A stretch of DNA of 64,000 nt from a virus (taxonomy: Duplodnaviria; Heunggongvirae; Uroviricota; Caudoviricetes), in the IMG/VR virus record IMGVR_UViG_3300046786_000604, positions 12,364 through 76,363 of that record. One strand, 5' to 3'. How positions within the stretch are numbered: position 1 is the first letter of the stretch; every line of letters starts with the position of its first letter. The notes under the pieces were generated by a model. The model made no database searches. It was not told the DNA's origin and saw nothing but the letters and a program-made list of their open reading frames with translations. Below are positions 1-16,877 of this stretch, in pieces. Made by a program: the position numbers and the translations under genes.

Positions 1-99
1 TAACACAGCAAAATTTTTAATAGTGTAGGTATCACCAACAGATGCTGATGATATGTTTATAGATACAACTGAAACCGGGCCTATTGATATAAATGCCAT
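1..99 (-). CDS. partial CDS (N-terminus only, continues past window start); hypothetical, tail-fibre module
   Basis: ATG at 99..97 preceded by AAAGG RBS; reads MAFISIGPVSVVSINISSASVGDTYTIKNFAVL... and runs off the window. Confidence 0.3.
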   Translation of the reverse strand, partial: MAFISIGPVSVVSINISSASVGDTYTIKNFAVL

Positions 100-101
100 A
101 A

Positions 102-2576
102 TTATGCCTTTAACAATAATCTACCGGTATTACCACCAGTTACATTATTCATTTGAAATAAATCTTTAGTATAATAAATTCTATTATCAGTTGAACTAAT
201 CCATAATGTTGATATTATACTTTGCCCATTTGTTGACATCCCGGCTGACCACCCAGCTGGTATCTGAGTGCAGTTTGAATTTCGTGTAGCATCTTCAAGG
301 CCGCTGGTCGAGTATGTATTTCCCGCTGGTGATACTGAAGAATTGACAGCATCACTAGCAGGTAATGAAAGTACCACTCTTGAAATGTATCCAATAGTGG
401 TACCTGGTTTTTTTGAACTTATATTAAGCATTCCCCTATATGGAATTAATGATAGATCTCCTCGGAATGATGTATCACCACTATACATGTATGAATATGT
501 ATAAGCGGTGGATGCACTTAAACTAACCTGAAAAAGATTATCGGTTCCTGCGTTACGTATTGTATTAACTGGTATTGAAAACCCAGAACCTGAACCGCCT
601 AACTGAGTATTAGGTACAGTGAATACAGTTGTAGAAGTCGAGCCAATCCCACCTCTTAACAATCCCACCGCAGTAACAATCCCACCAGTAACCGTAATAT
701 TCACAACCGGAAAGGTTGAGGGTGCTGGACCTGAACTTAATGTTAAAGTAACTCCAGTATATGTACCTGATACATACCCGGATCCACCTGTTATTGTACC
801 AAATGTTGCAATTACCCCGGCAGCACCTAATGTTGATGGCGCAATTTCTTGTATATATCCATTTGTAGGAGATGGATATCCAGTCATAATATAAAATAAT
901 CTACCACTTGTATAATCCATATACATACCAGGAACATAATAATATGCATTGCTACCAAATGATTTCAATAATACATTTAGAAGTTGTGTTCCAGTTGATG
1001 AAGTAAAACTTGCTATGCGAAATGATTGAGTAGTGGTGGTGGATGTACCAGCAGTATTGAATACAAAACATGAACCTTTATAATCGGGAACTGGTGTACC
1101 AAATCCAGTTGCAAGATAAGTAGCGGTCCCAGATGTAAACGTACTAACTAACGCAAAGCCAGTTCCTGTACTACCATCACTAGTTGACCATCTACTAACA
1201 ACATAACAATTTGGGGTCGTTGATGAAGTTCTAGATACAGCATAGACATACAGTTGATCTATAGATAAATATGATGACCCGTTGGTTAGTGTTACTGTTC
1301 CAGTATTAAATGTTTCAGTATCTATCCTGACCAGCCCTGTACTGGTAGAGCCATATATAGTTCTTAATCCATCAAAAACTAAATCATAAACACCTTCGGC
1401 ATTGGAATATCTTAATGTTGTAGCAGCACCGGCTGCAGTGTTGGTAGTATCATAAGTTCTAATACCATCACCTGCAGCGATCCATGCTGTTATACCAATA
1501 AGAATAGGTTTATATAGTTGAGCGGTAGATGTGCCATATCCTAATTGAGTAGGTCTGCCAGAAAGATTTAGATTATAAGCACCAGTCGTTACTGTTGTAT
1601 TGTCTGGCCCACCAGACATTCCTAGAATCAAATAATCAGTATTGGTACCATTTCCATCAGGCCATCCCCCTGTACTAGACCCTGGAACAGTAGTTGTATC
1701 TAATCCTGAACCAAGTGGTTTTGATACGCCCCAATTAAATGCCCTTCCAAATGGCATACTTTTAGTAATAGCATCGGCAGATAACGGTGATACTGTTGTT
1801 TTTGTTGAATCCCACCCGTATGTCATATTATAATATGAACCTAGATGTAATGCATTATTATTTGCATCAGTAAATGTACCGAGTCCGCCTTGTGGGTAGG
1901 TAGGTGGAAACATTCCTCTATTAGTAACCGGTGCGTACACATTTGCTGCCGCTGCACCAGTATTTCCATCAGCAGTTCTTGGAAATGCAAACATCGTTGT
2001 ACTTTTAGTTGTTAACACACCATAACCATATGGTGTACCAATCATTAATGAATTAGTCCATGCAAAACATGGAACACCGGTGTTATCTTCAGCAACTACC
2101 CGTTCAAATTCCATTATTGCACTCCACATACCGGATGTACTCCTAATCCAAGGCCATATCATAAAATGATATCGCGATGCAGAGACTAGAATGTAACAAT
2201 CTTTTAAATCATACCCATGTGGAAATAATCCAGTTGAATTCCATGTTTCATTTACTGGAGTGTGTGTTGCAAGAGTCCATCCTTCTGCTGCAGAAGTATA
2301 AAACATTGTTTTAACTGTATCCCATCTAATAATCAAGTATTTGTAATAAGTATTATCTGCACATAATGCTCTATAAACATACGTAGAAATTGGCGAATAT
2401 GTATTTGCAACACCATTTATTTGAGTTGACGCACCCGCTGCAATATAATCATATTGGGTCCAACCCAATGTTGTAATAGCGGTATCAACCGCTGAAATGA
2501 TATTAGCTGAAGTTGTTTCATTTGAAACAGTAATTTTTATACTATTAGTAGTATAACTTTCTGAAGAAACTGTCAT
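102..2576 (-). CDS. distal tail fibre / receptor-binding protein (824 aa)
   Basis: Long ORF very rich in G/S/T/Y/N, low-complexity beta-rich pattern typical of phage fibre tips; lies in a co-oriented cluster with fibre-motif proteins. Confidence 0.6.
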   Translation of the reverse strand: MTVSSESYTTNSIKITVSNETTSANIISAVDTAITTLGWTQYDYIAAGASTQINGVANTYSPISTYVYRALCADNTYYKYLIIRWDTVKTMFYTSAAEGWTLATHTPVNETWNSTGLFPHGYDLKDCYILVSASRYHFMIWPWIRSTSGMWSAIMEFERVVAEDNTGVPCFAWTNSLMIGTPYGYGVLTTKSTTMFAFPRTADGNTGAAAANVYAPVTNRGMFPPTYPQGGLGTFTDANNNALHLGSYYNMTYGWDSTKTTVSPLSADAITKSMPFGRAFNWGVSKPLGSGLDTTTVPGSSTGGWPDGNGTNTDYLILGMSGGPDNTTVTTGAYNLNLSGRPTQLGYGTSTAQLYKPILIGITAWIAAGDGIRTYDTTNTAAGAATTLRYSNAEGVYDLVFDGLRTIYGSTSTGLVRIDTETFNTGTVTLTNGSSYLSIDQLYVYAVSRTSSTTPNCYVVSRWSTSDGSTGTGFALVSTFTSGTATYLATGFGTPVPDYKGSCFVFNTAGTSTTTTQSFRIASFTSSTGTQLLNVLLKSFGSNAYYYVPGMYMDYTSGRLFYIMTGYPSPTNGYIQEIAPSTLGAAGVIATFGTITGGSGYVSGTYTGVTLTLSSGPAPSTFPVVNITVTGGIVTAVGLLRGGIGSTSTTVFTVPNTQLGGSGSGFSIPVNTIRNAGTDNLFQVSLSASTAYTYSYMYSGDTSFRGDLSLIPYRGMLNISSKKPGTTIGYISRVVLSLPASDAVNSSVSPAGNTYSTSGLEDATRNSNCTQIPAGWSAGMSTNGQSIISTLWISSTDNRIYYTKDLFQMNNVTGGNTGRLLLKA

Positions 2577-2579
2577 AGT

Positions 2580-3056
2580 TTAATTCCTTGTATAAGTAAA
2601 TGATAAAATAGCATCAAATGTATAATTTGTAGCAGTAACGTCTACTGTAATATAATCTGTTGTTAAAACTGTTGTATTTAAGGTAGATATTGATGAAATA
2701 TATTGTCCTGCTGTTAATGATACTGTAGCAATAGTAGAACCTGAATTTTTAATTACTAATGTTAATGGTCCACCAGATGGTGGAGTTCCAGCAGAAATAA
2801 AAACTGATGTAATATTTATAGATGTATCAGGATACCATCTTAAAGTTCCAGTTCCAATATTAACTGGACCAACAAAATTAAGTTGTTTTGTATAGATAGC
2901 GGAACTACCGCCTAATGATTTGATTTGATCTGATGTATTTTTAAAATACATTTTTTCATCGGCATAATTCAACGCGATCTCGCCATAATCTAAATCAGTA
3001 GCGAGTGGGATTTTGCCGATTACTGATGATTTTTTCAGTAATACTTTGTTTGCCAT
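2580..3056 (-). CDS. tail fibre protein (small)
   Basis: N-terminal motif GEIALNYADEKMYFKN (tail-fibre G-E-[IL]-A-x-N..D..[LM]Y signature); 4 nt from downstream fibre gene. Confidence 0.5.
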   Translation of the reverse strand: MANKVLLKKSSVIGKIPLATDLDYGEIALNYADEKMYFKNTSDQIKSLGGSSAIYTKQLNFVGPVNIGTGTLRWYPDTSINITSVFISAGTPPSGGPLTLVIKNSGSTIATVSLTAGQYISSISTLNTTVLTTDYITVDVTATNYTFDAILSFTYTRN

Positions 3057-3126
3057 TTTAAATCCTATAGAGGAAGGTTCTGCAAGAATGCAAGGATAGA
3101 ATAGAAATTCTACCCATTTTATCTAT

Positions 3127-4398
3127 TTAGTAGGTACCACCATCAATATCACCAACCGATAACACACCTGATGAATATAATAGCCCACTGCCAGCAATGG
3201 TTGATTTTAATTGTAATGCATCTGATGCAATTTCAATACCACCATCAGTTGCAACATTAACAATAAATGTTGAACCGGATAATGTCAACCCATCACCGCC
3301 TGAATACGCACCACCGCCATTGAATTGTACCCATTGCTGACCTGAAAAATTGGTCAAATAATGATTACCTTGTACCCAACCAGATTTACCATAATTGGTA
3401 CCTTCTAATATGAATATTGAAGCACCTTTTAATTCAGCGTAAGTATCTGCGTCAGCTGATCTAGATAATGTATAATTAGAACCATCATCGCTGTATAGAT
3501 ATACACCATTTTCTGATGCAGTTGATTGATTTTTTAATAAAATTCTATAACCATCGCCGTGTGCTTGAGTTAATGCACCATGACCATCAATAACCAACGT
3601 CCCAGTTGTTCCAGTTAATGCTACATTAGAATCTGCTAATAAATTAGCAGCATCTTTCCATGTTAACCCAGTAACTGCATTATCAACATAATCTTTATTA
3701 GCAGCATCGCTACCAACTTCGGGTGTACCAACATTAGTTATTTTCGCACCATTGACATCAACATTCCCTAACCCACTTGGGTCTAATGAAATATCGCCAT
3801 TTGTATTTGTGGATGAAATAATATTGCCATTGAAGTTTAAATTATCAATTGTTAGTTCGGTTAATCCAGCTAATGAAGTGGAGGTTGCGCCTAATGATAT
3901 AGATGTTGAGCCAATGGTTATTGAGCCACTAACTGGTATTGCAGCCCAAGATACAACACCAGATCCATTAGTGGTTAAAACATAATTAGCAGTACCATCT
4001 ACTCTAGGTAATGTATAAGCACCAGCAATAGAAACTTTTCCAGTACCATTAGGTGATAATAATAAATTTCCATTAGTATCAGTAGTGCTAATAGTGTTGC
4101 CATTTAATTCAATGTTATCAACTAATAAATCATCGATTTTTTTATTAGAATCTACAACAATAGCAGAAGATGCAGTTAATGTGCCAGCAGAGTGATCTAA
4201 TCTATCGGTAAAAAATTTACCACCGATAACAACATGGGTTGCGGCATTTCCACTAGTTTCTGAACCCATACCAATGTATAATCGGTCACCACCATTGCTA
4301 CCATTATCGGTTAATCCAGAATATGCTAATTCACCATTACCTAATGTTGATGGATTACCCGAAGTTTCTGAACGTTTTATTCTAATAATGTTACTCAT
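3127..4398 (-). CDS. tail fibre protein (423 aa)
   Basis: N-terminal GNGELAYSG..DRLYIGMG fibre motif; Gly/Asn/Thr-rich repetitive body. Confidence 0.55.
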   Translation of the reverse strand: MSNIIRIKRSETSGNPSTLGNGELAYSGLTDNGSNGGDRLYIGMGSETSGNAATHVVIGGKFFTDRLDHSAGTLTASSAIVVDSNKKIDDLLVDNIELNGNTISTTDTNGNLLLSPNGTGKVSIAGAYTLPRVDGTANYVLTTNGSGVVSWAAIPVSGSITIGSTSISLGATSTSLAGLTELTIDNLNFNGNIISSTNTNGDISLDPSGLGNVDVNGAKITNVGTPEVGSDAANKDYVDNAVTGLTWKDAANLLADSNVALTGTTGTLVIDGHGALTQAHGDGYRILLKNQSTASENGVYLYSDDGSNYTLSRSADADTYAELKGASIFILEGTNYGKSGWVQGNHYLTNFSGQQWVQFNGGGAYSGGDGLTLSGSTFIVNVATDGGIEIASDALQLKSTIAGSGLLYSSGVLSVGDIDGGTY

Positions 4399-4407
4399 TT
4401 AAATTCC

Positions 4408-4758
4408 TTAATAATGACCGCCATCTAAATTTTGATTGCTGCCAAGAGATAATAATATATTTGTATTGTCTGTCAATTGACTAATATCGGTAGGTGGTGC
4501 AACTGTGCTAATAACACCATTTGTTATTGTAATATTGTTTCCAATTTTAACACCACCTAGTCTAGATGCAGTTGCAATGGGTAAAGTATATGATCCAGAG
4601 CCAGAACCGGTAGATAATGGTATTCCACCTTTTGTTTCACCGTCCCCTAAACGTAAATCTCCCAGTTCTTGGTTATAAAAGATCATGCCATTATCACCGA
4701 TATAATCATCAGCGGTAACTGAGTTAACTCTACTTGATCGTATCTTTTGAATAGTCAT
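4408..4758 (-). CDS. tail fibre-associated small protein
   Basis: GDLRLGDGETKGG motif similar to neighbouring fibre N-termini; tight operon spacing. Confidence 0.45.
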   Translation of the reverse strand: MTIQKIRSSRVNSVTADDYIGDNGMIFYNQELGDLRLGDGETKGGIPLSTGSGSGSYTLPIATASRLGGVKIGNNITITNGVISTVAPPTDISQLTDNTNILLSLGSNQNLDGGHY

Positions 4759-4769
4759 TATTTAAATCC

Positions 4770-5060
4770 TTATAGCAATCTTAATAAATGTGCCAATTCA
4801 TCTTCATGCATTTGGATTACTTTGATTTCATCTTCATCGGATATTTCATGCTGAGTTAAATCATCAATTATATCACTTTCTTTACCATTAGCCGCTTTTT
4901 TCATTTCTAATTCTTGTTGTAATGGTGAAACAAATACTGGATTTTGATCTAATTCACTTGGATCGGTTTTATCCTGTGATGGCATATCAATCTCTGGATC
5001 ACCGTCCCCGTTTATTCTTATGTTAATTGGTACATTAATTGTAAATTCTTTAGCTCTCAT
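4770..5060 (-). CDS. hypothetical acidic protein in tail-fibre operon
   Basis: ORF with RBS; acidic; could be an assembly factor (inference). Confidence 0.4.
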   Translation of the reverse strand: MRAKEFTINVPINIRINGDGDPEIDMPSQDKTDPSELDQNPVFVSPLQQELEMKKAANGKESDIIDDLTQHEISDEDEIKVIQMHEDELAHLLRLL

Positions 5061-5095
5061 AATCTTATTTATCCATTATTGACATGTAGAATTTA

Positions 5096-6841
5096 CTAAT
5101 ATATTTCACGCCATTGCATACTAACTCCAACATTTGTTGATTGTGCACCTAAATTTGTGGCAACTACTAGAAATATCTCGGAATCCGTGCTATCAAAATT
5201 TTGTACTATATAATTTTTCTTTGCGGATGAAGGGATATTACTTGCTGGCGCTCCACCGGCTTTTTGACTACCTTGCGTTGATGCACCCACAAAACCACTA
5301 TCCATTTCTTGTCCATTTGACCATGCAGTAGCAGTAACATTATATTGAACACCAGAATCAGTATTAACATCTACCCAAGTGCTGCCAGTTAAACTAGATT
5401 GCGCTGGTAGTTTTATTAATCTCCACATAATGTTCCCACCATCACTGAATACGTTGAGATTACCCATACGAACGATCATTCTGTTTGAATAAGTATGAAA
5501 AGCATTTTTCAATCTAATAGCCATAACAGGTGCTGTTACACCAGCTGCTATTGTTTTCAAGGTTGACGTAATTGTAGACCAATCTTGACCTGCTTCAACA
5601 TATCCACCTTCACTGAATACTGTTGAACATATTTGATCCATAGATCCACCCGTAGTTGCACCAACATTTCTTATTTCACATCTAATTGGAAGATTTGGAT
5701 TACTCATGTAAACAGTTGGCAAATAATTGCTATGTAAGAATTCATGAACATAAACTACAATACCATCATGTGCAAATCCAACCCTAACTCTACCAACGCC
5801 CAGCCACTGGAAATCAATCGCTACTAATTGTGTATTAAGTATGTTCAACCATGGTACAGTGTCTAAATTCCATTGTGATTGAGTTTTTCTGACTTCAATG
5901 GGAGCGCCAGAAACAAAACTTCTTATAACCCATGATAAAGTCCCATCTCCTGCTTGTTCAAAGTAAATGCCATCGTTGTCATCGAAGTATCCAGTTCGTT
6001 TAACTACGTTCGGTGTAGCACCTCCAAAATTTATACTACTAAAAATCACTTGAGATTTACCAGGCATATAATGATGATAAAATTTTGTTTGATGGATAAT
6101 AAAACTAGATGGATTAGAAGTTGTAGATAATGTACAACATGCTTTATTTTTTACAAATTGAATAGCACCTCCATTCCCGGTATAGTCGATAAATGCAGGA
6201 TCGATACCATATAAGTGTTTATAATCACCTAAAGTAAAGGGCTCAGAAACACGTTGTCTACCAAACGCATCAATTGCGCCAAAACCCATTGAAACTGGAA
6301 TCGGATTTCCACTATCATTTTTTATTTCTACTTCTGGTAAACTACTAATTGAAACACTACCGTTTACTGGAATCGGATTTCCACTATCATTTTTTATTTC
6401 TACTTCTGGTAGACTACTAATTGAAACACTACCGTTTACTGGAATCGGATTTCCACTATCATTTTTTATTTCAACTTCTGGTAAACTACTAATTGAAACA
6501 CTACCATCCACTGTAATAGAACCACCATTATCACTAATTGCCCATGGGGTAGTACCTTGTTTAACAGTCCAATCACCATCTTGCTGAACTTTTCCTATTA
6601 CTGCAGAACTAGTTTTTAATGTTACTTGACCATTAGTGCCAATAGATACTGGTGCAGAATGATTTTCATCCAATACATTCCCTAATGAATCAATTTGAAC
6701 TCGCACTTTGTCAACAATAACATCACCTTGCAGTGATATTCCATCAACATGTGTGCGAACAACCGGTTCACCTGCGTCATTATATTGCATAGCTTTATGC
6801 AGATTTTTTAAATTATTATCATTTGGGTGTATATATGTCAT
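5096..6841 (-). CDS. virion structural protein with 3 x 24-aa tandem repeats (fibre/baseplate-associated?)
   Basis: 581-aa ORF; internal triple repeat SVSISSLPEVEIKNDSGNPIPVNG encoded by 3 x 72 bp; sits in the structural operon. Confidence 0.5.
   Translation of the reverse strand: MTYIHPNDNNLKNLHKAMQYNDAGEPVVRTHVDGISLQGDVIVDKVRVQIDSLGNVLDENHSAPVSIGTNGQVTLKTSSAVIGKVQQDGDWTVKQGTTPWAISDNGGSITVDGSVSISSLPEVEIKNDSGNPIPVNGSVSISSLPEVEIKNDSGNPIPVNGSVSISSLPEVEIKNDSGNPIPVSMGFGAIDAFGRQRVSEPFTLGDYKHLYGIDPAFIDYTGNGGAIQFVKNKACCTLSTTSNPSSFIIHQTKFYHHYMPGKSQVIFSSINFGGATPNVVKRTGYFDDNDGIYFEQAGDGTLSWVIRSFVSGAPIEVRKTQSQWNLDTVPWLNILNTQLVAIDFQWLGVGRVRVGFAHDGIVVYVHEFLHSNYLPTVYMSNPNLPIRCEIRNVGATTGGSMDQICSTVFSEGGYVEAGQDWSTITSTLKTIAAGVTAPVMAIRLKNAFHTYSNRMIVRMGNLNVFSDGGNIMWRLIKLPAQSSLTGSTWVDVNTDSGVQYNVTATAWSNGQEMDSGFVGASTQGSQKAGGAPASNIPSSAKKNYIVQNFDSTDSEIFLVVATNLGAQSTNVGVSMQWREIY
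6297..6512. repeat. 3 x 72-bp near-perfect tandem repeat inside CDS 5096..6841
   Basis: Unit ggaatcggatttccactatcattttttatttctacttctggtaaactactaattgaaacactaccgtttact repeated three times. Confidence 0.85.
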
Positions 6842-6842
6842 C

Positions 6843-7055
6843 TTAAACCTCTGGACCTAATTCCCATGGATGTCCTGTAGCTGGACTAACTGTTCCTGGG
6901 CTATTATAAACATTATATGGTCTATAACCAATTTTAGTAATATCAACTGGATCAGTATTAATAAGTTTTCCTTGACGTTTTAATTCAGCCAATTCTAATT
7001 TTAAATCTCTACGTTCGGATTTTGGGATATGTGTTGAAATACCATTTTCTGCCAT
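6843..7055 (-). CDS. hypothetical protein (first gene of minus-strand structural operon)
   Basis: 70-aa ORF; AAAGGA RBS; 1 nt upstream of the next gene. Confidence 0.4.
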   Translation of the reverse strand: MAENGISTHIPKSERRDLKLELAELKRQGKLINTDPVDITKIGYRPYNVYNSPGTVSPATGHPWELGPEV

Positions 7056-7092
7056 AATTTTTTTCCTTTTGTATATTTAGTTAAATATCGGT

Positions 7093-8289
7093 ATGATTAA
7101 CAAAGAACCATTCATCAAACTAATAGATAATTTAAAAGAAACTGGAAAGTATAGAGTTTTCAATGACATACTACGCGAACAAGGTAAATTCCCAAATGCA
7201 ATTTGGTATGGCCCATATGCAATCAAGAATATTGTCAATTGGTGTAGTAATGATTATCTTGGGATGGGGCAGCATAAAGTAGTATTAGATGCAATGAGGA
7301 CAGCATTAGATATGACAGGTGCTGGTTCTGGTGGTACTAGAAATATTTCAGGAACTAGCCATTATCATGTAGCATTAGAACATGAATTAGCATCATTGCA
7401 TAAAAAAGAAAAAGCACTATTGTTCTCATCTGCATATGTAGCAAATGAATGGAGTTTAATTGCATTAAGTAAGGTTATTCCAAATATCGAGTTTATTAGT
7501 GATAGCAAGAACCATAATAGTTTAATAGTTGGTATGAGCCATAGCAGAGCACCTAAACAAATATTCAAGCATAATGATTTAATTGAGTTAGAAAACTGTT
7601 TAAAACAGGCAGTTAAAAATGAAACCATTCCTTGCATTGTATTTGAAAGTGTATACAGTATGGAAGGTGATGAAAGTAATATCCAAGCAATATGCGATTT
7701 AGCAGACCAGTATAATGCCATAACATACATTGATGAAGTTCATGCAGTAGGATTATATGGTGAGCATGGTTCTGGTAAATTAGAAGAACTGGGATTACAA
7801 GATCGAGTAGATATCGTGAATGGTACACTTGGTAAAGCATTTGGTGTACAAGGTGGATATATTGCAGGTGATTCAATAGTCGTAGATGCAATAAGAAGTA
7901 TTGCTGCTGGTTTTATATTTTCAACATCTTTAAGTCCAGTGATATGTGCCGGTGCACTTGCTGCAGTTAAGTATTTGAAAGATCATAATGAGTTAAGAGA
8001 AAAACATCAAGAACGTGCTAGAAAATTAAAACATAGAATGGTAAAAGCTGGAATTCCTGTGATGGAGAGTACAACACATATTGTACCCGTTTTAATCGGT
8101 GATGCTAAACTTGCGAAAGAGATTAGTGATATTTTATTAAATGAATATAATATATATGCACAAGCAATTCAAAGTCCAACAGTCGAGGTAGGAGCAGAAC
8201 GATTAAGATTTGCTCCTACGCCATTGCATGACGATGGCATGATTGAAGATTTAATTCAAGCTTTATCAGCAATACTTAAATCTTCGTAA
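7093..8289 (+). CDS. hemA: 5-aminolevulinate synthase (alpha-oxoamine synthase family, PLP-dependent)
   Basis: [12 protein letters not shown] motif and [20 protein letters not shown]-lysine region closely match ALAS. C-terminal [14 protein letters not shown] matches ALAS rather than BioF/Kbl. Confidence 0.7.
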
Positions 8290-8332
8290 ATAATCCCTTC
8301 TAATCCACAGCCGAATTTTGCTAATACATAGA

Positions 8333-8356
8333 AAAAAGCGGAAATCATTCCGCTTT
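8333..8356. terminator. bidirectional intrinsic terminator between convergent hemA-like and nuclease genes
   Basis: aaaaaagcggaa-atca-ttccgcttt: 8-bp GC stem flanked by an A-run on one side and T-rich sequence on the other; overlaps the nuclease stop codon. Confidence 0.4.
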
Positions 8357-9160
8357 ACCTTTACATTTAGCTTGTTTTGCTTTAGTTAATGCACCAAAGT
8401 CAACAGGCCATAATTGGTCAAGTGGTAATTCCGATGCATTAGCTGGATATGCAAATGTAATACCAGTCAATTGTTGGATTTGTGCAATTGGTGCTCTAAC
8501 TTTTGTTAAATCATTGCCTAATCCTGCTTGATGTGGAAAAATGAAACCAGCTACTTCATTAGTGGCGGTATCTATTACAATTTTAAAAAATGCATGTGGA
8601 ACAATTACATTGTTTACACCGATTGTTTTGTCTGATTGGGTATAAATCGGGCCAGCATAAATTACATAAGGATGATTTCGTTGAACAGTCCATCCTCGAA
8701 CACTAGTTTCAAGGAGCTTCCATGTTGATCTATTGAGTCCTGGTAATTGTGGGAACATATTGGTTAGTAAAAAACTTTCTTTTTCAAATTGATCGAAACT
8801 GCTCATATCAGCATTTGGTGCAACATGCCCGATATCATATCCTGACTTGGCATAATCTGCTAACTCTGCTCTACTGCCTTTTGGTAAACTTTGATCAGGT
8901 GCGAATCCATTAGAACGTGGTACACATCCTAATGCATATTCAGGATAAAGTGTGTAAGAAACCCACACTGGTAATTTAGCAGTTGTATCATTTAATGTAA
9001 CATAACCGGCACGACAAATTGCTACACCTTGTTTAGCAGTTTGTGGAAAGCCATATGGTGATTGAACTTGACATTTTTCAATTGGGTAAGGTGCATATTG
9101 TTCCCAAGCATGTACAGGAACTGTAAAAAATGCAGTGATTAAAAATAAAATATATTTCAT
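8345..9160 (-). CDS. secreted DNA/RNA non-specific endonuclease (NUC/Serratia-nuclease family)
   Basis: Signal peptide MKYILFLITAFFTVPVHA; catalytic-type motif GYDIGHVAPNADM (D-R-G-H family). Confidence 0.65.
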   Translation of the reverse strand: MKYILFLITAFFTVPVHAWEQYAPYPIEKCQVQSPYGFPQTAKQGVAICRAGYVTLNDTTAKLPVWVSYTLYPEYALGCVPRSNGFAPDQSLPKGSRAELADYAKSGYDIGHVAPNADMSSFDQFEKESFLLTNMFPQLPGLNRSTWKLLETSVRGWTVQRNHPYVIYAGPIYTQSDKTIGVNNVIVPHAFFKIVIDTATNEVAGFIFPHQAGLGNDLTKVRAPIAQIQQLTGITFAYPANASELPLDQLWPVDFGALTKAKQAKCKGKAE

Positions 9161-9193
9161 AGTAGTCCTTTAATTAAGTACTACTATTTAACT

Positions 9194-9600
9194 TTATTTA
9201 AACCAGCCCATCTTTTTTCCTAATGTATCACGTCTGTAATATTCTTGTAAACTACCTGGAAATCGCCAAGCCCAAATAGCAACTAGTAGCATAAAGCCAC
9301 CTGACCAGCAAGTAGCTTTGATGTTATAAGTAGTAAACCATAGAATAGCTAACGAACTAGCCATAACTAGTAACATCATATTTTGTTATCAATCCAATTA
9401 GTTAAGAATGGTCCAAAATGTTTATGATTATATAACCATTTATTCATTACAGGACTACCTTTACTAAAACAAATAGCAGCTCCTACGAGAAACGGGCTGA
9501 ATGGCAACCCAGGTAATATAATACCCAGGTATGCAATTCCTAACAATATAAATCCAGCTATTTTCCATAACCAATTTTTCATACGATAAATTCCAACCAT
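9194..9600 (-). pseudogene. YbaN/DUF454-family inner-membrane protein split by a frameshift (ORFs 9376..9600 and 9194..9379)
   Basis: GIILPGLPFSPFLVGAAICFSKGSP..FGPFLTNW matches YbaN N-half, and MMLLVMASSLAILW..WRFP matches the C-half in another frame. The break is at aaaatATGATG. Confidence 0.4.
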
Positions 9601-10091
9601 TCCTTATGTTTAACATTGAACTCAAATTTTTTACGTTTATTAACTAATTCGAAATAATCTGGTTTATATGGTTTAATGCGGGGTTTGTACCCATGTTGTT
9701 TATCGCCTTTAGCGGAATTACATGGACCACATGCAATAACGGTATTATCCCAAGAAGTTTTACCACCTTTAGACGATGGAACAACGTGATCTAATGTCGC
9801 GGTATTTTTAGTTAGTTTAGACCCACAATATTGACATTCTCCATTATCACGGATGAAAATACTAGAGCGACTAAATCTGACCGTTGCTTTTGGTTTCATA
9901 TATTCGCGTAGAATTAAAACTGATGGAACATTAGTTTCCCAGTTTGCGGAGCGGATAGTCCAATTATTGTGCCATAATACTACATCGGCTTTTTCAAGCA
10001 CAATGTATTTTATAGCATCTTGCCAATTTATAGTGCTAAGTGGTAAAACACTTACTGGCATTCCTGATGCGTTCAGCAGTAAGCAGTCCAT
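9579..10091 (-). CDS. HNH endonuclease
   Basis: CQYCGSKL...LDHVVPSSKGGKTSWDNTVIACGPCNSAKG (HNH/zinc-finger signature). Confidence 0.65.
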   Translation of the reverse strand: MDCLLLNASGMPVSVLPLSTINWQDAIKYIVLEKADVVLWHNNWTIRSANWETNVPSVLILREYMKPKATVRFSRSSIFIRDNGECQYCGSKLTKNTATLDHVVPSSKGGKTSWDNTVIACGPCNSAKGDKQHGYKPRIKPYKPDYFELVNKRKKFEFNVKHKEWLEFIV

Positions 10092-10136
10092 AATAATTTC
10101 TCTCTGTTAAATGTGTATTATATCACAATAAAGTGA

Positions 10137-10685
10137 TTATGCCAAGATACTTTGTGCAAACTCCATACCAGATTTATCTAGTGCATTTGCCCATTGTTCT
10201 TTATTATCGGTGTCAAACACTAATTCTGGATCACTTGAAGCAATGCACCAGCTATTTTCGTGTTTATACGGTGATATTCCGTTTATTTCATTCATTAATT
10301 GATGTTCAGCCCATCCACACATACCGGCAATCATCCTCCATTCTTTTGGAGTATCGCCTCTTGATAATCTGGTAAGCATATCTTCTGATGAGCTTAATGA
10401 AAATTGATTATTGATTCGTAAGGTGTTACTAGTACGCCATTCATTAGAATGGATTATACTAAGACTTTTTGGACTTATTGGACCACCAATATAAACGAAT
10501 CCAGGTAGGTCAATTTCTAATCCCAATCGTTCGCCCAGTTCATTTACGGTCACTGGGCTACGTTTATTGATTATCAAACCTATACTACCGTCTCTATGGT
10601 GTTCAGTTACCATTATAACTGTTTTATACCATAAATTGCCTTTTACTGATGGTGGTGCGATTAATAGTTTTCCGATTAAATTCAT
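10137..10685 (-). CDS. YqgE/AlgH-family protein (UPF0301/DUF179)
   Basis: N-terminus LLIAPPSVKGNLWYKTVIMVTEHHRDGSIGLIINKRS matches the AlgH/YqgE family start. Confidence 0.6.
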   Translation of the reverse strand: MNLIGKLLIAPPSVKGNLWYKTVIMVTEHHRDGSIGLIINKRSPVTVNELGERLGLEIDLPGFVYIGGPISPKSLSIIHSNEWRTSNTLRINNQFSLSSSEDMLTRLSRGDTPKEWRMIAGMCGWAEHQLMNEINGISPYKHENSWCIASSDPELVFDTDNKEQWANALDKSGMEFAQSILA

Positions 10686-10697
10686 ATAGTTATTTAA

Positions 10698-11498
10698 CTA
10701 TACAAATCTTGATACAGAATTTTTTACGTCGGCAATAGTAATTGTTCCGTCGTTATTTCTATCTAATCCTTTATTTTGATCGTATACTGCATGTCCACTT
10801 GAACTAATAACATGATTATCATCCTTGCCTAATGCTGCTGGGTAAAATACTGCAATATATAAATCACCAACCCCCATTCCTGGTTTAATTCCAATCATTT
10901 TAAAATATTTGTAAACATAATCAAGTTGTTCAACTGCGGTCATTCTATGCAAATCTTCAACTGATGTGCCCAATCTTCTAGCAGTACTTGGCATAAATTG
11001 AATAAGCCCAGTTGCACCGGATGATTTATTAACTGCTTGTGGATTTACACCTGATTCTTGCTTCATAATTGCAATTAAATCATTAGATTTTACCCCTAAC
11101 TCAGACGAGACTTTTTCAAGTTTCCTATTGAAATCTGGATCTTGAATAATACTAACATCAACATCAACTGATTGCCCACTATCTTTAATATCAGCTTCAG
11201 TACTCTTAGTTAATCTACCCGCGATTTCTGGATTCTCTGCCAATGCAGAATTTAACCCAGTAATGAGTTGTTCATCTGGTTTTCCGGTAGTTGGTAATCC
11301 TAAAGCACCTTGTGCTTTAGCAACAGCAGCTTTAGTATACTTCCCTAAAATCCCATCAACCCCTGGTGGTCCAACATCATAACCGAATGCTACTAATACT
11401 TTTTGTAGATCAGCTACATCAGGTGAGATCATTCTTGTTGGAAGCGATAATGTAAATCCTTCTGCTTCTTTTAAAATTTTAAATTCATAAAATCTCAT
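10698..11498 (-). CDS. peptidoglycan-binding domain + lytic transglycosylase (SLT) lysin
   Basis: N-terminal PG_binding_1-like LQKVLVAFGYDVGPPGVDGILGKYTKAAV; SLT signature ESGVNPQAVNKSSGATGLIQFMPSTA. Confidence 0.65.
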   Translation of the reverse strand: MRFYEFKILKEAEGFTLSLPTRMISPDVADLQKVLVAFGYDVGPPGVDGILGKYTKAAVAKAQGALGLPTTGKPDEQLITGLNSALAENPEIAGRLTKSTEADIKDSGQSVDVDVSIIQDPDFNRKLEKVSSELGVKSNDLIAIMKQESGVNPQAVNKSSGATGLIQFMPSTARRLGTSVEDLHRMTAVEQLDYVYKYFKMIGIKPGMGVGDLYIAVFYPAALGKDDNHVISSSGHAVYDQNKGLDRNNDGTITIADVKNSVSRFV

Positions 11499-11851
11499 TA
11501 GTTACCTTTCCACTTTGGTAATGGCCCACCATAATCACTAGCTTTGACTAATTTACCTTTAATACTTTTTGGTTTTGATTCACCACCGGTTTTGAATTTA
11601 CGTTTGGTATCGCGTTTTCTCAATCCTTGTGCTTTACAAGATGAAAGCTGGCTAGCACCTAGTTCTTTATCGGTTTTTTTAGATAAACACAATTTTCTGG
11701 ATGCTTTTCCTGCTTCGTCTAATTCAATTTCTTCATCAACCTTGTAAGGTGCTACTGGTTTGTGTCCACGTGGATCGCGGCTACCCTCTCTTACTTTTCT
11801 TTTTGGTTCTACACCAATTTTTTCTTCTGATAAAATTTCACTTATACGCAT
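11498..11851 (-). CDS. hypothetical Lys/Arg-rich protein
   Basis: Basic low-complexity 117-aa ORF, 1-nt overlap with the downstream gene. Confidence 0.4.
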   Translation of the reverse strand: MRISEILSEEKIGVEPKRKVREGSRDPRGHKPVAPYKVDEEIELDEAGKASRKLCLSKKTDKELGASQLSSCKAQGLRKRDTKRKFKTGGESKPKSIKGKLVKASDYGGPLPKWKGN

Positions 11852-11878
11852 GATTAAATCCTTAATATCATGTATTTA

Positions 11879-12691
11879 TTATATTCCTCGATCAATCCAA
11901 TCATATACCGATGCCCATTTTCTTCTACCAATCGTAGATTTCAACAAAGTTAAATCGGCCTTCGTATTATACTGTTCTGTATTTTTAGGTTCAACTAGTT
12001 CTAATGGGACATCTTCTTGGAATGCGATTTCTTCGGCAATGTCCAAGTATGAGTGTGATAATCCAGTCCCAACATTCCAAATACCAGACCCATTCACTTG
12101 TTTAATAAAATCAATATGTAATTTACATACATCACCTACCCATACCCAATCACGTTTAATACGATGTGCATTGCCCCAGACGGTTATTTTACCCTCTGTT
12201 TTAGCTTGTTCTCTCCATCTACAAATAATATCAGTATGTGCCCCCTTTGTATGCATATATCGCCCGTATACATTAAAATATCTGAATCCTTGGACATAAA
12301 TATTTTGTTGTTGTTGAAACACCCATCTATCAAATAGGTATTTTGACCAAGCATATGCAGTATGTGGATGACATGGAGCAAACTCTGAAAAATCATTAGA
12401 GTTGCCATATACTGCACACGTACTTGCATATTGCATATGTACTTTATTCAAGTTACATTCATTAAACAACCATTGACTAAATTCATAGTTTTTATATATT
12501 ATTGTATCAACATCGGTGTCACTTGTATCAGTGACTGCGCCTAAATGTATCACCCATTTATAATTTTTAACATCTGGGAAATTGTTTGGGTCCCACGTCC
12601 ATGTATCAATTTCCCAGAATTCTTCTTGATTTAACCAGTCTAACATATTACGACCAATGAAACCTGCTGAACCGGTTACTAATATTCTCAT
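11879..12691 (-). CDS. hldD: NAD-dependent sugar-nucleotide epimerase, ADP-L-glycero-D-manno-heptose 6-epimerase (HldD/RfaD)-like
   Basis: VTGSAGFIGRN Rossmann motif; YAWSKYLFDRWV and FRYFNVYGRY..KRDWVWVGDV..GIWNVGTGLSHSY align with HldD blocks. Confidence 0.6.
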   Translation of the reverse strand: MRILVTGSAGFIGRNMLDWLNQEEFWEIDTWTWDPNNFPDVKNYKWVIHLGAVTDTSDTDVDTIIYKNYEFSQWLFNECNLNKVHMQYASTCAVYGNSNDFSEFAPCHPHTAYAWSKYLFDRWVFQQQQNIYVQGFRYFNVYGRYMHTKGAHTDIICRWREQAKTEGKITVWGNAHRIKRDWVWVGDVCKLHIDFIKQVNGSGIWNVGTGLSHSYLDIAEEIAFQEDVPLELVEPKNTEQYNTKADLTLLKSTIGRRKWASVYDWIDRGI

Positions 12692-12697
12692 AAATAC

Positions 12698-13342
12698 CTA
12701 TGTAGTTTTATCATTAAAATCAAATAATGGTGTGTCCAATGGTTCTGATTTTTTAGGTTTTGGTTCTTTCTTAGGTTTTGGTTCTTTCTTAGGTTTTGGT
12801 TCTTTCTTAGGTTTTGGTTCTTTCTTAGGTTTTGGCTCAGGAATTGGATCTGGATCAATAACTTGTTCATAGAATTTATAATTGTATTTTACACCATTTG
12901 CACAAACTATATTTGTTATAGTACTATTTACTTCGAATATAGCTGTTACAGCTTCATGTTTCCAATCGGCAGGTATATCATCATCCATTAGTATTTTTAT
13001 ATCGTCTTTTGATACAAGATATAATCGTTTAATACATTCAATACAATTATCTAGCATTATATCAACACCAAAAATTGTAGACAGTGCGATATCATGACTT
13101 ATACCATTTTTCATTTTAAGAATTAAGGCAGCAACCAAAAATTGCCCATCACCACAGGTTGGATCGATAAATGTTTTAGTATCATCTGTAAACAGTTCTA
13201 CTGGGAATTTGTTTAAGATTTCTTCTACCAAGTCCGATGGTGTAAAGATTTCACCAGTTTGTTTGGTTCGTTCGTTATCCCTATCCACTCCTGACATATG
13301 TTCACGGGAATGGTACTCTTCTATTAATTTATTTAATATCAT
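12698..13342 (-). CDS. methyltransferase-like protein (motif X/I only) with C-terminal (PKKEPK)n repeat tail
   Basis: GEIFTPSDLVEEIL...FIDPTCGDGQFLV resembles N6-adenine MTase motifs X and I. No NPPY motif. Ends with EPKPKKEPKPKKEPKPKKEPKPKKEPKPKK. Confidence 0.5.
   Translation of the reverse strand: MILNKLIEEYHSREHMSGVDRDNERTKQTGEIFTPSDLVEEILNKFPVELFTDDTKTFIDPTCGDGQFLVAALILKMKNGISHDIALSTIFGVDIMLDNCIECIKRLYLVSKDDIKILMDDDIPADWKHEAVTAIFEVNSTITNIVCANGVKYNYKFYEQVIDPDPIPEPKPKKEPKPKKEPKPKKEPKPKKEPKPKKSEPLDTPLFDFNDKTT
12757..12850. repeat. about 5 x 18-bp tandem repeat (ggttttggttctttctta) inside CDS 12698..13342
   Basis: Direct tandem copies encoding the PKKEPK tail; the opposite strand gives a spurious GFGSFL ORF. 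Confidence 0.85.
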
Positions 13343-14429
13343 TATATGAAATATTTTTAACCATTTGAATATTTAACCATCCACTAAATCTACATGCGGT
13401 ATTTAACAGTGATTTAATGCTAATAAGTCTTTCCCTAATTGCATTCGCACCCTCTATTGTAGATGGGTATATATATAGAAATAACCCCGCATTTTCATGT
13501 CCCCCAGTAGGTTTAGTGTCACCATCAAGAATTTGAATACTTTCAACCGTTATTTTTCTAGTCATTGGTATACATACTCTTAATTTAGGTGTATTACGTT
13601 GATCAACAATGAATGCACCTAAATTATTAGTGAAATCAATTTCATGACTGAACTCATCAGTGTTTACCTTATTGTGTAAAAACCCCAATGAAGTATCAAT
13701 GTTATTAGAAAACACCAATCCGTCGTTTTTAGATTTATCAACTATTACGTACCCAAAAGAAGAACCAACAGTTGGAAAGTATTGTTTTACCGAATCAATA
13801 TTAGCATATGACGAATATTGATTAAACACATTCCATAACTTGTTTTCTTTATTAGGCCCAATACGATAAATCCCTACTAAATCTCTACTAGGACTAATCC
13901 ATGTAGTGGGAGTAATCAATCCAATCACACCGTCATCTTTTGATAGATCCTTGATTGCTACTGACCAGAACTTAGACCATAGATTACTTGCTTTATCCTT
14001 TCTTTTACCATCCTTAGTTATTTCTTGAAATGGTGGGTTACCCGCTATTGCGTCAAATTTCATAATTATATCATCCTTGATATTTTGAAGTCTTTGTCTA
14101 AACTCAATACTGTAATAGGTTAGTGAGCTTATATTTTTACCTGAGAACATCGCTATAAAATCAGTCGAATCCAGGACTTCATATGTTCCGACTAATTTGT
14201 GTGTCTTTTTAGCATTATTCATTGCCATTGAAGTTTCAAAGAACCCAAATGTAGTAGCACGAATTTCATCATCTGACAATCCCGCTGCTCTTTTTTGCTC
14301 TTCAACTACACTTACAAATTGCCCAGTTCCGGCAACTGGGTCTAAAAAATTTCCATGAATATGATGTCCATTAAAGCCTTTTAAAATTTCCATAACAAGA
14401 GCTTCAAATTGTGTTTTATTGCGTACCAT
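13329..14429 (-). CDS. N6-adenine DNA methyltransferase (gamma-class motif order)
   Basis: Motif I FLDPVAGTGQF followed by motif IV AIAGNPPFQE; C-terminal putative target-recognition region. Confidence 0.65.
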   Translation of the reverse strand: MVRNKTQFEALVMEILKGFNGHHIHGNFLDPVAGTGQFVSVVEEQKRAAGLSDDEIRATTFGFFETSMAMNNAKKTHKLVGTYEVLDSTDFIAMFSGKNISSLTYYSIEFRQRLQNIKDDIIMKFDAIAGNPPFQEITKDGKRKDKASNLWSKFWSVAIKDLSKDDGVIGLITPTTWISPSRDLVGIYRIGPNKENKLWNVFNQYSSYANIDSVKQYFPTVGSSFGYVIVDKSKNDGLVFSNNIDTSLGFLHNKVNTDEFSHEIDFTNNLGAFIVDQRNTPKLRVCIPMTRKITVESIQILDGDTKPTGGHENAGLFLYIYPSTIEGANAIRERLISIKSLLNTACRFSGWLNIQMVKNISYNDIK

Positions 14430-14530
14430 TTATATATCCTTATAATCATGGTATTGGTATTATCGTATTTCTATCAGCCAACCATGGCTTGATAAAATTT
14501 TCCTGAATCTATCCTGATTTCAGGCATGTT

Positions 14531-14557
14531 TTCTATCAAGTCGTCCTGACTTGATAG
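14531..14557 (-). terminator. perfect 11-bp palindromic hairpin between helicase-like gene and methyltransferase (terminator or regulatory site)
   Basis: tctatcaagtc-gtcct-gacttgataga; no strong U-tract, so its function is uncertain. Confidence 0.3.
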
Positions 14558-14576
14558 AAATACGGGTTATTTCATC

Positions 14577-16877
14577 CTAAACTTTTAGGTCTAATAAATC
14601 TTTATTAATTACACCTAATGTAAATAGTTCATCAATTAACTCAAACTCTATATTGTATTCGAGTTTAAATTCATTCCTTACTACTTCATTGTTTCTATAA
14701 AAGTCCAATGCATCATCAATATTATTGATATCACCGGTACTATCACACCCATCTACCATGAAATCGATGTTTTCAGCAACACATGCGATCACTTCTCTTA
14801 CCTTGGAGATAATGTCTTTTGGGTCAGTGCTATCATCTGGTTTATTTGAGTTGCCCTTGACCGGTTTAATTACAGGCATAGCTGTTTTACCTTTTGATAC
14901 TGAAGCAGTTTTAGCAATTTTTAATGCTTCTAAGTCACGTATCGCAATTGCTGCAAGTTGATCTTCATTTAAGATATCTAAATTTGCAGTTTTTCCAATG
15001 ATTCTACTTCTACGATTGAAGCTGATAAATTGTTCTAAGTATTCATCAATTTCAATCTTGATACGGTCACCATCCTCTGATGATTTATAGATATCAATCG
15101 TTTTCAATACATTACGCAATGCATTTTTCAATCCACACCCATTATTTTTAGCTTGGCTTTTGGCTGTTTCTAATATCATCGCATCAAATTTATCATCGCG
15201 ATTTGGATCAAAACTTAATGAAATAATTCTAGCTAATGTTTTATTCATACCAGCTGTCAATGCACGACTGATGCGCTGTGTAGTAGTTCCAGCATCACCG
15301 TTATCATATGCCAAGTACAATTCTGAAATTTGTGGAATAGAAAAACTACGTTGAGCCATCTGGACCGCTAATATTAATGAGTGTTTATTACTCATTGATG
15401 CCTTTTCGATTTCTTCTTTAACGAATACCTCGGCATCGGCACCTTTCATACCATCCGCACCATAAACCATTGAAATTCTATAGCCTGGTAAGGTATCTTC
15501 GGCAATACTGGCTAATTCTTTCAAGTTTTTATTAGAAGTATTGTTAGGGAAGAACATCATTGCCACTCGCTTACCTTCATCTGCGGTGCGTTCAGTAATT
15601 AAGTCAACATTTAAATTATCATAATCACCATCCATAAATAAACTTCTTAATGTTTTAACCAAGAACCGTTTAGCCTTAACTGGTTTAGCTACAGTTTTAC
15701 CCCAAGATGGTAAAAATACACCACCATCATCAAATACGTCTGGTTCATTGATTTTAGTATCTTCAACTGGTCCAGCTAAATCTAATTGATAGAATTCTGC
15801 ATCTACTACTGATTTTGTTCTTTCTGGATCAACTGTAAAATACTTTAATGTTGTATCATATGAGGGACGAACTGTACGTTTTTCAATAAGTAATTCTGGG
15901 TACACAACTGTATCAACAAAATCAATTTTCCACGCACTTGCCGCTCGATCAGGATTGGTGCCAGTCATAAGAATTACAACATCATCTGGTTGTTGTGCAT
16001 CAATCATAGCCATTGCTTGTCCAGACCGATGCGCCCCGAAATCAGCTTCATCAATAAATGTCAATCTATCGACATCTAACCCATACAGATAGTCAATACG
16101 ATCTTGTCTTAATGAACCTGGGCACAATGAAAGAAATGCAACCACTTGCTTACCATTAGTTAATGCATCATCAATTAACGATTGATAATTCCTAACTGAT
16201 GTTTCCACGAATACAATATCTTTAAATTGTTCATAACCCGCTAGTTCATTTCTGATACTAGTACCAGCCGTAAGAACGTAGCTGGAATATATAGTTAGTG
16301 GAATACCAGCTTCCTTAACGATAGATGCTGACCAAATTGTTTTTCCAAATCTCGCACAGAATTCCGCCAACAATACTTGTTTACCTTGTATGATTTTATC
16401 AAGGAACAACTCGGCTTTTTCTGCTTGTAGTACATTCAACGATGCAGTTGGCAATGGTTGACCAGCCTCGTAAAGAAACTTATCTACTCTATATTTAATT
16501 TCATCGACTGGAAGATCATGCCATTCCCGAGAGTTTGGTTTAATATGTCCAATATGCGGTCTGATGTAATCATCGATATAGATATGAGATTCTCTAAATT
16601 TACCAGTCTTAATGGCTAGATCAGTTACATCCCATACACCAAAGCAACCAGCTGTACCATTTTTCCATTTATGATGACTAGTGGTCAATTGTTCTTTAAT
16701 ACGATCAGATACACCATTTAATGGATCTTCGCCTGCTGGAACATAAGTTTCACCTACTTTACCATCTACATCTGGGTTTTCACTAAAAATATAGATGAAA
16801 ACCCGTGAGTTAACTGGATCTATACTAAATTTATAATCATTAACGCCTTTAACTAGTCCTGTAACTAATTGTGCCAT
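14577..16877 (-). CDS. P-loop NTPase / SF2 helicase-like protein (766 aa)
   Basis: Walker A AEFCARFGKT, DEAD box FIDEADF, TGT motif ILMTGTNPD. Start set at MAQLVTGL (ATG 16877, AAGGAA RBS) because the longer ORF start overlaps the promoter -10. Confidence 0.5.
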   Translation of the reverse strand: MAQLVTGLVKGVNDYKFSIDPVNSRVFIYIFSENPDVDGKVGETYVPAGEDPLNGVSDRIKEQLTTSHHKWKNGTAGCFGVWDVTDLAIKTGKFRESHIYIDDYIRPHIGHIKPNSREWHDLPVDEIKYRVDKFLYEAGQPLPTASLNVLQAEKAELFLDKIIQGKQVLLAEFCARFGKTIWSASIVKEAGIPLTIYSSYVLTAGTSIRNELAGYEQFKDIVFVETSVRNYQSLIDDALTNGKQVVAFLSLCPGSLRQDRIDYLYGLDVDRLTFIDEADFGAHRSGQAMAMIDAQQPDDVVILMTGTNPDRAASAWKIDFVDTVVYPELLIEKRTVRPSYDTTLKYFTVDPERTKSVVDAEFYQLDLAGPVEDTKINEPDVFDDGGVFLPSWGKTVAKPVKAKRFLVKTLRSLFMDGDYDNLNVDLITERTADEGKRVAMMFFPNNTSNKNLKELASIAEDTLPGYRISMVYGADGMKGADAEVFVKEEIEKASMSNKHSLILAVQMAQRSFSIPQISELYLAYDNGDAGTTTQRISRALTAGMNKTLARIISLSFDPNRDDKFDAMILETAKSQAKNNGCGLKNALRNVLKTIDIYKSSEDGDRIKIEIDEYLEQFISFNRRSRIIGKTANLDILNEDQLAAIAIRDLEALKIAKTASVSKGKTAMPVIKPVKGNSNKPDDSTDPKDIISKVREVIACVAENIDFMVDGCDSTGDINNIDDALDFYRNNEVVRNEFKLEYNIEFELIDELFTLGVINKDLLDLKV

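Follow-up and report, generated by a model that had tools for sequence, protein, structure and literature searches.

A predicted 5-aminolevulinate synthase of the viral vAlaS clade in an uncultured freshwater T4-like phage lineage

Does the one gene that runs against its neighbours in a block of late phage genes encode a true 5-aminolevulinate synthase (ALAS), is it a resident of the phage, and what might it do there? The gene, valaS, lies on 64,000 nucleotides of a tailed phage of the Caudoviricetes (positions 12,364 to 76,363 of the IMG/VR record IMGVR_UViG_3300046786_000604), a stretch referred to here in its entirety as the window. Viral genes of this type have a precedent, as Wegner et al. 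(2024, Nat Commun 15:8783; PMC11480375) described valaS on marine and freshwater phage contigs and showed that the products form a clade, vAlaS, distinct from bacterial AlaS. The data presented below indicate, with a probability of about 0.88, that the product of the window gene is a catalytically competent, homodimeric, pyridoxal phosphate (PLP)-dependent ALAS (EC 2.3.1.37) of the vAlaS clade, and that valaS is an auxiliary metabolic gene (AMG) of an uncultured freshwater T4-like myophage lineage. The gene was read as follows:

7093..8289, plus strand: valaS, 5-aminolevulinate synthase coding sequence, 398 aa, ATG to TAA, intact

The 398-residue protein, which contains both motifs quoted in an original prediction made from the DNA alone, scored 556.3 bits against the NCBIfam model for 5-aminolevulinate synthases, TIGR01821, over residues 7-396. 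This is 218 bits above the model's own cut-off of 338.55, the threshold for membership of EC 2.3.1.37. Models for other α-oxoamine synthases returned scores below their respective cut-offs; these comprise 2-amino-3-ketobutyrate CoA ligase (Kbl; 319.5 bits versus 460), 8-amino-7-oxononanoate synthase (BioF; 306.7 versus 426) and SPT (226 versus 640, with no SPT model exceeding 226 bits against cut-offs of at least 500), together with the BioF/Kbl-related and CqsA models. The five best matches in the PDB were all ALAS enzymes (1e-128 to 1e-107, with 7x98 at 1e-128 and 2bwn at 1e-123), while the best Kbl appeared at 1e-63. The protein is 52-53% identical to Rhodobacter capsulatus ALAS, compared with 33% identity to Kbl and 28% to BioF. 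In a neighbour-joining tree rooted on Salmonella Kbl and E. coli BioF the window protein fell inside ALAS, and the monophyly of ALAS relative to the two outgroups was recovered in 100 of 100 bootstraps (a 60-sequence subset); SPT was left out of the tree and judged by hidden Markov model (HMM) and PDB scores. Such a phylogeny had been proposed in the original prediction as the check on a Kbl or BioF identity, and it came out on the side of ALAS.

The catalytic centre is also conserved. R21, N54, T83, H142, D214, H217, T245, K248, S277, T278 and R374 of the R. capsulatus enzyme are all retained in the window protein, and the mapped active-site positions are invariant across 78 viral relatives. 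In the numbering of the window protein these include:

R21, N53, T82, H141, D214, H217, K248 (the Schiff-base lysine) and R372: conserved residues, mapped on R. capsulatus ALAS

The retained set comprises the PLP Schiff-base lysine and PLP ligands (R. capsulatus K248, H142, D214, H217, T245, S277 and T278), the ligands of the glycine carboxylate (N54 and R374, equivalent to N53 and R372 in the window protein) and those of the succinyl-CoA carboxylate (R21 and T83, equivalent to R21 and T82). The roles of these ligands follow the R. capsulatus structure literature and PMC11480375. The gene is under purifying selection, with a dN/dS of 0.08-0.17 against four relatives. As the fold and the PLP-lysine motif are common to the entire α-oxoamine synthase family, and as Pfam resolves the protein only to Aminotran_1_2, its single match in that database, the protein could in principle be Kbl, BioF, SPT, CqsA or a cyclising ALAS-like enzyme that does not produce 5-aminolevulinic acid (5-ALA). 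Such an identity is scarcely credible in view of the scores and identities reported above and the retention of the succinyl-CoA carboxylate ligands; in addition, ALA production has been shown for another member of the same viral clade (see below). The HMM cut-offs, PDB matches, active-site residues and tree, in combination, strongly support the prediction that the window protein is a true ALAS and neither Kbl nor BioF, the latter two being ruled out by cut-offs, identity and tree.

Within the tree the window protein groups with 78 IMG/VR loci, five phage-like contigs from metagenome-assembled genomes (MAGs) and three published marine vAlaS. None of the 64 cellular ALAS sampled, a set that did not include Pelagibacterales AlaS, falls within this clade, which was recovered in 100 of 100 bootstraps of the same subset. 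The nearest published relatives, from the bog lake GROS21-1 in north-east Germany, share 82-86% identity with the window protein across its first 168 aa; identity to the CB_2 vAlaS is 61.5% over 218 aa, both comparisons covering the first 168-230 residues of the published alignment. Marine vAlaS are ∼60% identical over their full length. The CB_2 enzyme made ALA and complemented an E. coli ALA auxotroph (PMC11480375). By its sequence, the window protein is a member of this published, experimentally backed vAlaS family; the ALAS call of the original prediction is thus correct, and the finding already known.

Relatives of valaS with at least 75% identity (75-88%) occur on 462 IMG/VR contigs. A tblastn search of 50,697 deposited phage records revealed no ALAS, only matches of the Kbl/BioF level (at most 36% identity, mostly in host DNA), no PHROGs family matches the window ALAS, and megablast of positions 6000-10000 and 30001-55000 matched no deposited phage. 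Among species-representative genomes, genuine alphaproteobacterial ALAS are the closest cellular enzymes at 47-57% identity. Matches above 57% (68-70%) were confined to MAG contigs that are short or odd and bear the labels Crocinitomicaceae, Flavobacteriales, Neomarinimicrobiota, Vibrio and Alphaproteobacteria, where the neighbours are of phage type (HNH, DUF454, PTOX/AOX and PstS); cellular genomes with close homologues were consequently rejected as a clue to the host. One example is L084 (PBPT01000016.1), a 335-kb contig binned as Candidatus Neomarinimicrobiota, in which positions 1-11191 contain valaS and DUF454 close to PEPCK-like, class-II aminoacyl-tRNA synthetase-like, alternative oxidase/PTOX and PstS genes. 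Genes of these kinds typify the AMG islands of marine phages, and a large phage wrongly binned into a MAG is thus the probable source of the contig or of that end.

The immediate surroundings of valaS in the window are as follows:

6843..7055, minus strand: 70-aa conserved phage protein, last gene of the virion-structural block and divergent upstream neighbour, sharing the intergenic palindrome with valaS
7074..7087, no strand assigned: palindrome TATTTA-GT-TAAATA within the 37-nt divergent intergenic region
8335..8356, no strand assigned: 9-bp G+C-containing hairpin between the convergent valaS and nuclease genes
8345..9160, minus strand: DNA/RNA non-specific endonuclease (Endonuclease_NS), secreted type, convergent downstream neighbour
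9194..9600, minus strand: DUF454/YbaN-family membrane-protein gene (Pfam), split into two ORFs (74 and 61 aa) by a 22-bp deletion

The view that valaS is a lone plus-strand gene held up, as all other non-nested open reading frames (ORFs) of at least 90 aa between 102 and 16910 are on the minus strand, and the sign of the GC skew is inverted solely over valaS. The flanks are likewise as originally described. Upstream are virion structural and tail-fibre-like genes, identified by PHROG and tblastn matches, among which the product of 5096-6841 is 50% identical to a virion protein of cyanophage S-RIM32; a baseplate-lysozyme gene also lies in the flanking region, and downstream is the nuclease gene. 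The 70-aa upstream neighbour lacks a Pfam match and has 100% identical copies in five related loci (L004-L008). The antisense position and orientation of valaS are kept in all 79 loci with a full-length copy, despite the divergence of the flanking genes to 25-80% identity, and the recurring order is valaS on the plus strand followed by nuclease, DUF454, HNH, DUF179, SLT and epimerase genes on the minus strand; the nuclease is syntenic with valaS in 41 related viral loci. The exact window protein is also present, with the same neighbours, on an independent 2.6-kb Logan contig, and an 81% identical relative (P0048) resides on GROS21-1 scaffolds with the gene order of the window. On the GROS21-1 scaffold L164 (positions 1-9930), from a bog-lake relative, the virion genes upstream of valaS give way to a cluster encoding five radical-SAM/SPASM proteins, accompanied by glycosyltransferase and UDP-glucose dehydrogenase-like genes. 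The conserved virion-gene synteny across dozens of viral contigs demonstrates that valaS is phage-borne.

The palindrome upstream of valaS bears on its expression. TAAATA (7082-7087) stops 5 nt short of the ATG, its reverse complement is directed towards the 70-aa gene at 6843-7055 on the minus strand, and no Shine-Dalgarno 4-mer core precedes valaS. Among 49 distinct upstream regions of related viral loci, many of which border unrelated upstream genes, 43 retain TAAATA at a distance of 10-14 nt from the ATG, preceded by TATTTA at a spacing of 2-5 nt. Within the window TAAATA precedes ten ORFs, ∼3 times the expected number, and eight of the ten are within the late/structural block at 4408-13342. 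The T4 late promoter is TATAAATA. By analogy, TATTTA-GT-TAAATA may represent back-to-back T4-type late-promoter −10 elements, in which case valaS would be co-expressed with the virion genes, possibly with a very short or absent leader. A weak σ70-like match (9/12) is present at 7049-7077; such matches are no commoner in the sequence than after shuffling (10 versus 10.3), and a σ70 promoter for valaS was rejected on these grounds.

Downstream of valaS, the hairpin at 8335-8356 is real (ΔG of −11.5 and −13 kcal/mol; z-scores of −4.2 and −3.6) and overlaps the last codons and stop of the nuclease gene. UUUUUUCUAU comes after it on the minus strand, the only strand on which the scan calls a terminator, whereas the plus strand continues with ACCUUUACAUUU, a poor U-tract. 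The element is therefore a canonical intrinsic terminator for the nuclease gene and at best a weak one for valaS. Of the bidirectional terminator originally proposed, the hairpin and its minus-strand function stand, while the plus-strand half lacks a proper U-tract.

These features also bear on whether valaS entered the phage recently as a moron, with a promoter and terminator of its own and expression apart from the late genes, or is even bacterial DNA mis-assembled into a phage contig. The strand of the gene, opposite to that of all its neighbours, the downstream hairpin and the σ70-like match are what such an origin would have in its favour, and the first two underlie the moron-like arrangement initially suggested. 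Against it, the σ70-like match is of a kind equally frequent in shuffled sequence, the U-tract of the hairpin is on the opposite strand, and the upstream TAAATA motif is shared with neighbouring late-region genes. The GC content of valaS (0.335) is essentially that of the genome and surrounding DNA (∼0.34), its position is the same in 79 of 79 loci whose flanking genes have diverged extensively, and the Logan contig provides an independent copy. The gene thus displays neither the atypical composition or patchy presence nor the dedicated promoter and terminator of a moron. A recent moron or an assembly artefact is very unlikely, and the moron interpretation fits poorly; valaS has long resided in a widespread freshwater phage lineage and is maintained there by vertical descent.

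In this lineage DUF454 is linked to valaS more consistently than any other gene (48 of the 80 viral loci). In L081, L082, L084 and L085, four phage-like contigs of marine origin, the two genes share a strand and DUF454 comes immediately after valaS, its start codon overlapping the valaS stop. The 22-bp deletion that splits the gene in the window is defined relative to L001, an otherwise near-identical contig in which DUF454 occupies 14264-14692. A functional link between DUF454 and valaS is unproven, and the literature on DUF454 and heme is uninformative, containing only a transcriptomic mention of induction by iron limitation in Avibacterium. A bolder proposal can be framed around this linkage, in which the long-resident valaS, fixed in its antisense slot, is read nearly leaderless from a TAAATA 5-9 nt off its start, 5-ALA or tetrapyrroles are needed late in infection, and DUF454 is a partner of the enzyme. 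This appears distinctly unlikely. Were it true, the need for tetrapyrroles would come late, unlike the upkeep of respiration from the start of infection, and DUF454 would be a so far unrecognised partner acting, for example, in the handling of ALA or porphyrins at the membrane.

Comparison with L001 also reveals mosaicism at valaS itself. The flanks of the two contigs are 97-100% identical, while the 3′ half of valaS has diverged to ∼85-90% nucleotide identity. Between valaS and the nuclease gene L001 contains two homing-endonuclease-like genes (11248-13421; one with NUMOD3, the other with GIY-YIG and NUMOD3), and a 98-nt duplicate of the valaS 3′ end is present at 12017-12114. The inserted endonuclease genes, the partial valaS copy and the contrast between the diverged 3′ half and near-identical flanks suggest endonuclease-driven gene conversion, with valaS as a hotspot.

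What the enzyme contributes to infection can be framed as follows. The window protein would condense glycine and succinyl-CoA to 5-ALA, CoA and CO2, as shown for the ∼61% identical CB_2 enzyme. The product would feed the host's downstream tetrapyrrole enzymes, leading to heme and possibly to B12 or bilins, and a committed, normally tightly regulated step would become independent of host gene expression and regulation. valaS would be transcribed at the same time as the late genes around it, from the T4-late-type element that adjoins its start codon, and the benefit would be sustained respiration or a supply of tetrapyrrole cofactors.

Which route the phage enzyme would serve is a question of the host. 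It was originally proposed that a phage ALAS bypasses the C5 route. On this view a gamma- or betaproteobacterial host makes ALA from Glu-tRNA, and the phage enzyme would replace the host route, spare tRNA-Glu for translation and escape the regulation of GluTR. The idea is not new, a tRNA-Glu-sparing and regulation-escape rationale having already been put forward for vAlaS phages of non-alphaproteobacterial hosts (PMC11480375), and whether it applies here depends on the host. The sole hint is the tail-fibre protein encoded by 3127-4398, which among cultured phages is most similar to those of Limnohabitans phage DC31 (50%) and Methylophilales phage Melnitz (42%) and also matches Pelagibacter phage Mosig (37%), the similarity being split among Limnohabitans, beta/gamma-type methylotroph and SAR11 phages. 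The first two infect non-alphaproteobacteria, in keeping with a bypass; the third does not point the same way, and the closest cellular ALAS (at most 57% identity) are alphaproteobacterial, while marine vAlaS contigs have been attributed to pelagiphages (PMC11480375). No direct host marker was found in the window and nothing specific to Gammaproteobacteria, the host originally assumed; the window contains no tRNAs, and these were rejected as a source of host information. Replacement of the C5 route is therefore tentative, with somewhat less than an even chance. Were the host alphaproteobacterial (for example a freshwater SAR11), there would be no C5 route to bypass, and valaS would supplement a native Shemin route.

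A further possibility is that 5-ALA is made for a purpose other than respiration, with over-produced ALA or porphyrin serving bilin or B12 synthesis, iron handling or light-dependent damage to the host late in infection. The late-promoter-like element, suggestive of expression alongside virion genes and not early, is compatible with such a role, as are the conserved linkage to a DUF454 membrane protein and the presence of hemO and a bilin reductase elsewhere in the 179-325 kb genomes of the GROS21-1 relatives (PMC11480375). However, the proposal is pure inference, DUF454 is disrupted in the window itself, and hemO and ferredoxin-dependent bilin reductase (FDBR) are absent from the window and from the vicinity of valaS in 80 related loci. 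A pay-off of this type is unlikely.

Several points weigh against the favoured interpretation of valaS as a competent, late-expressed viral ALAS that supplies the host pathway. The ALA-forming activity of the window protein is predicted from its sequence. The physiological rationale, be it replacement of the C5 route or supplementation of a native Shemin route, depends on the host. Neither the 64-kb window nor the 10 kb on each side of valaS in the 80 related loci yielded any other tetrapyrrole gene (hemO, FDBR, hemB and the like), which leaves the pathway context wholly to the host. The search for hemO and FDBR, which are frequent but not obligatory companions of valaS in the clade, used tblastn with the HemO and FDBR sequences of PMC11480375 against the window and the 80 viral loci, and Pfam on window ORFs of at least 190 aa; the rest of the genome, beyond the window, may carry hemO and a bilin reductase as do the closest published relatives. 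The late-promoter assignment draws on analogy to the T4 consensus and on the position and enrichment of the motif, which could instead be the binding site of a regulator. Finally, the argument that an absent feedback site frees the enzyme from regulation is weak. His342 and the C-terminal Cys of R. capsulatus ALAS are the proposed heme-feedback residues; in the window protein His342 is replaced by Leu340 and the Cys is absent. As His342 is missing in 63 of 64 cellular ALAS sampled, its lack says little on escape from heme feedback, and loss of the site as a viral adaptation was downgraded.

The other genes of the window fit a T4-like aquatic myophage that carries many auxiliary genes, including the seryl-tRNA synthetase (SerRS), SLT and epimerase cargo originally listed:

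10137-10685, minus strand: AlgH-like DUF179 protein
10698-11498, minus strand: SLT
11879-12691, minus strand: NAD-dependent epimerase
31574-32422, minus strand: SPFH/Band-7 protein
34884-36257 and 59461-60477, minus strand: nicotinamide phosphoribosyltransferase (NAMPT) and a bifunctional cytidylyltransferase-like/NUDIX protein (NMNAT-NUDIX type), an NAD salvage pair
38550-39881, minus strand: BCS1-like AAA ATPase, 39.7% identical to a Salmonella jumbo-phage 'chaperone'
40836-42110, minus strand: SerRS, full length
43436-44425, minus strand: ADP-ribosylglycohydrolase
52634-53299, minus strand: Bax1-inhibitor family membrane protein (Bax1-I)

The SerRS gene is in a 1-kb segment with a GC content of 0.46, versus ∼0.34 for the genome. 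This composition suggests a comparatively recent acquisition, which might serve as a pointer to the host lineage. At 12698-14429 on the minus strand, adjacent ORFs resembling an N6-DNA methylase (214 aa) and an Eco57I-type methylase (366 aa) are shared with L001 and absent from nearly all other related loci; the pair may constitute a strain-specific DNA-modification module. A 159-aa ORF at 18439-18918 on the plus strand, located among small plus-strand ORFs of early type, aligns through its residues 35-77 with no more than the initial ∼44 positions of the Gp23 major-capsid profile and is not a full capsid gene.

With respect to known systems, the reference bacterial ALAS from R. capsulatus (PDB 2BWN/2BWO/2BWP) resembles the window protein over its full length; the two are of equal length without additional domains and share all PLP, glycine and succinyl-CoA ligands. 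They differ in the putative feedback residues, and the window gene is phage-encoded with a GC content of 34%. Kbl and BioF, by contrast, have in common with the window protein the α-oxoamine synthase fold and the PLP-lysine motif, and are set apart by low identity, scores below their family cut-offs and an outgroup position in the tree.

The published vAlaS are the closest system. Their genes may form a cassette with hemO and a bilin reductase, lie close to these two or stand alone (PMC11480375), and the window gene, from the same virus-only clade, matches the last of these arrangements, the 'individual valaS' category. Many published vAlaS also lack the equivalents of His342 and the C-terminal Cys, and the role hypothesised for them is that proposed here. 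The exact window sequence and its phage are absent from that study, and the 64-kb window is without hemO or a bilin reductase. What the window adds is the confirmation of valaS within 64 kb of DNA from an uncultured T4-like phage of freshwater, the close relatives of which are common, and regulatory and contextual detail that PMC11480375 does not report, in which the residual novelty lies: the fixed antisense position, the conserved, late-promoter-like TATTTA-N-TAAATA, the association with DUF454 and the mosaicism that accompanies homing endonucleases. The tetrapyrrole genes of cyanophages and pelagiphages (ho1/hemO, pebS and pcyA/pcyX) are, like valaS, auxiliary genes of T4-like aquatic myophages, and some vAlaS share the three-gene cassette with them (PMC11480375). 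None of these genes is in the window or adjoins valaS in close relatives, and they act in heme degradation and bilin reduction, whereas ALAS catalyses the first biosynthetic step. A phage ALAS, as shown in 2024, extends viral takeover beyond the heme-degrading and bilin steps of cyanophages to the first, rate-limiting step of tetrapyrrole synthesis.

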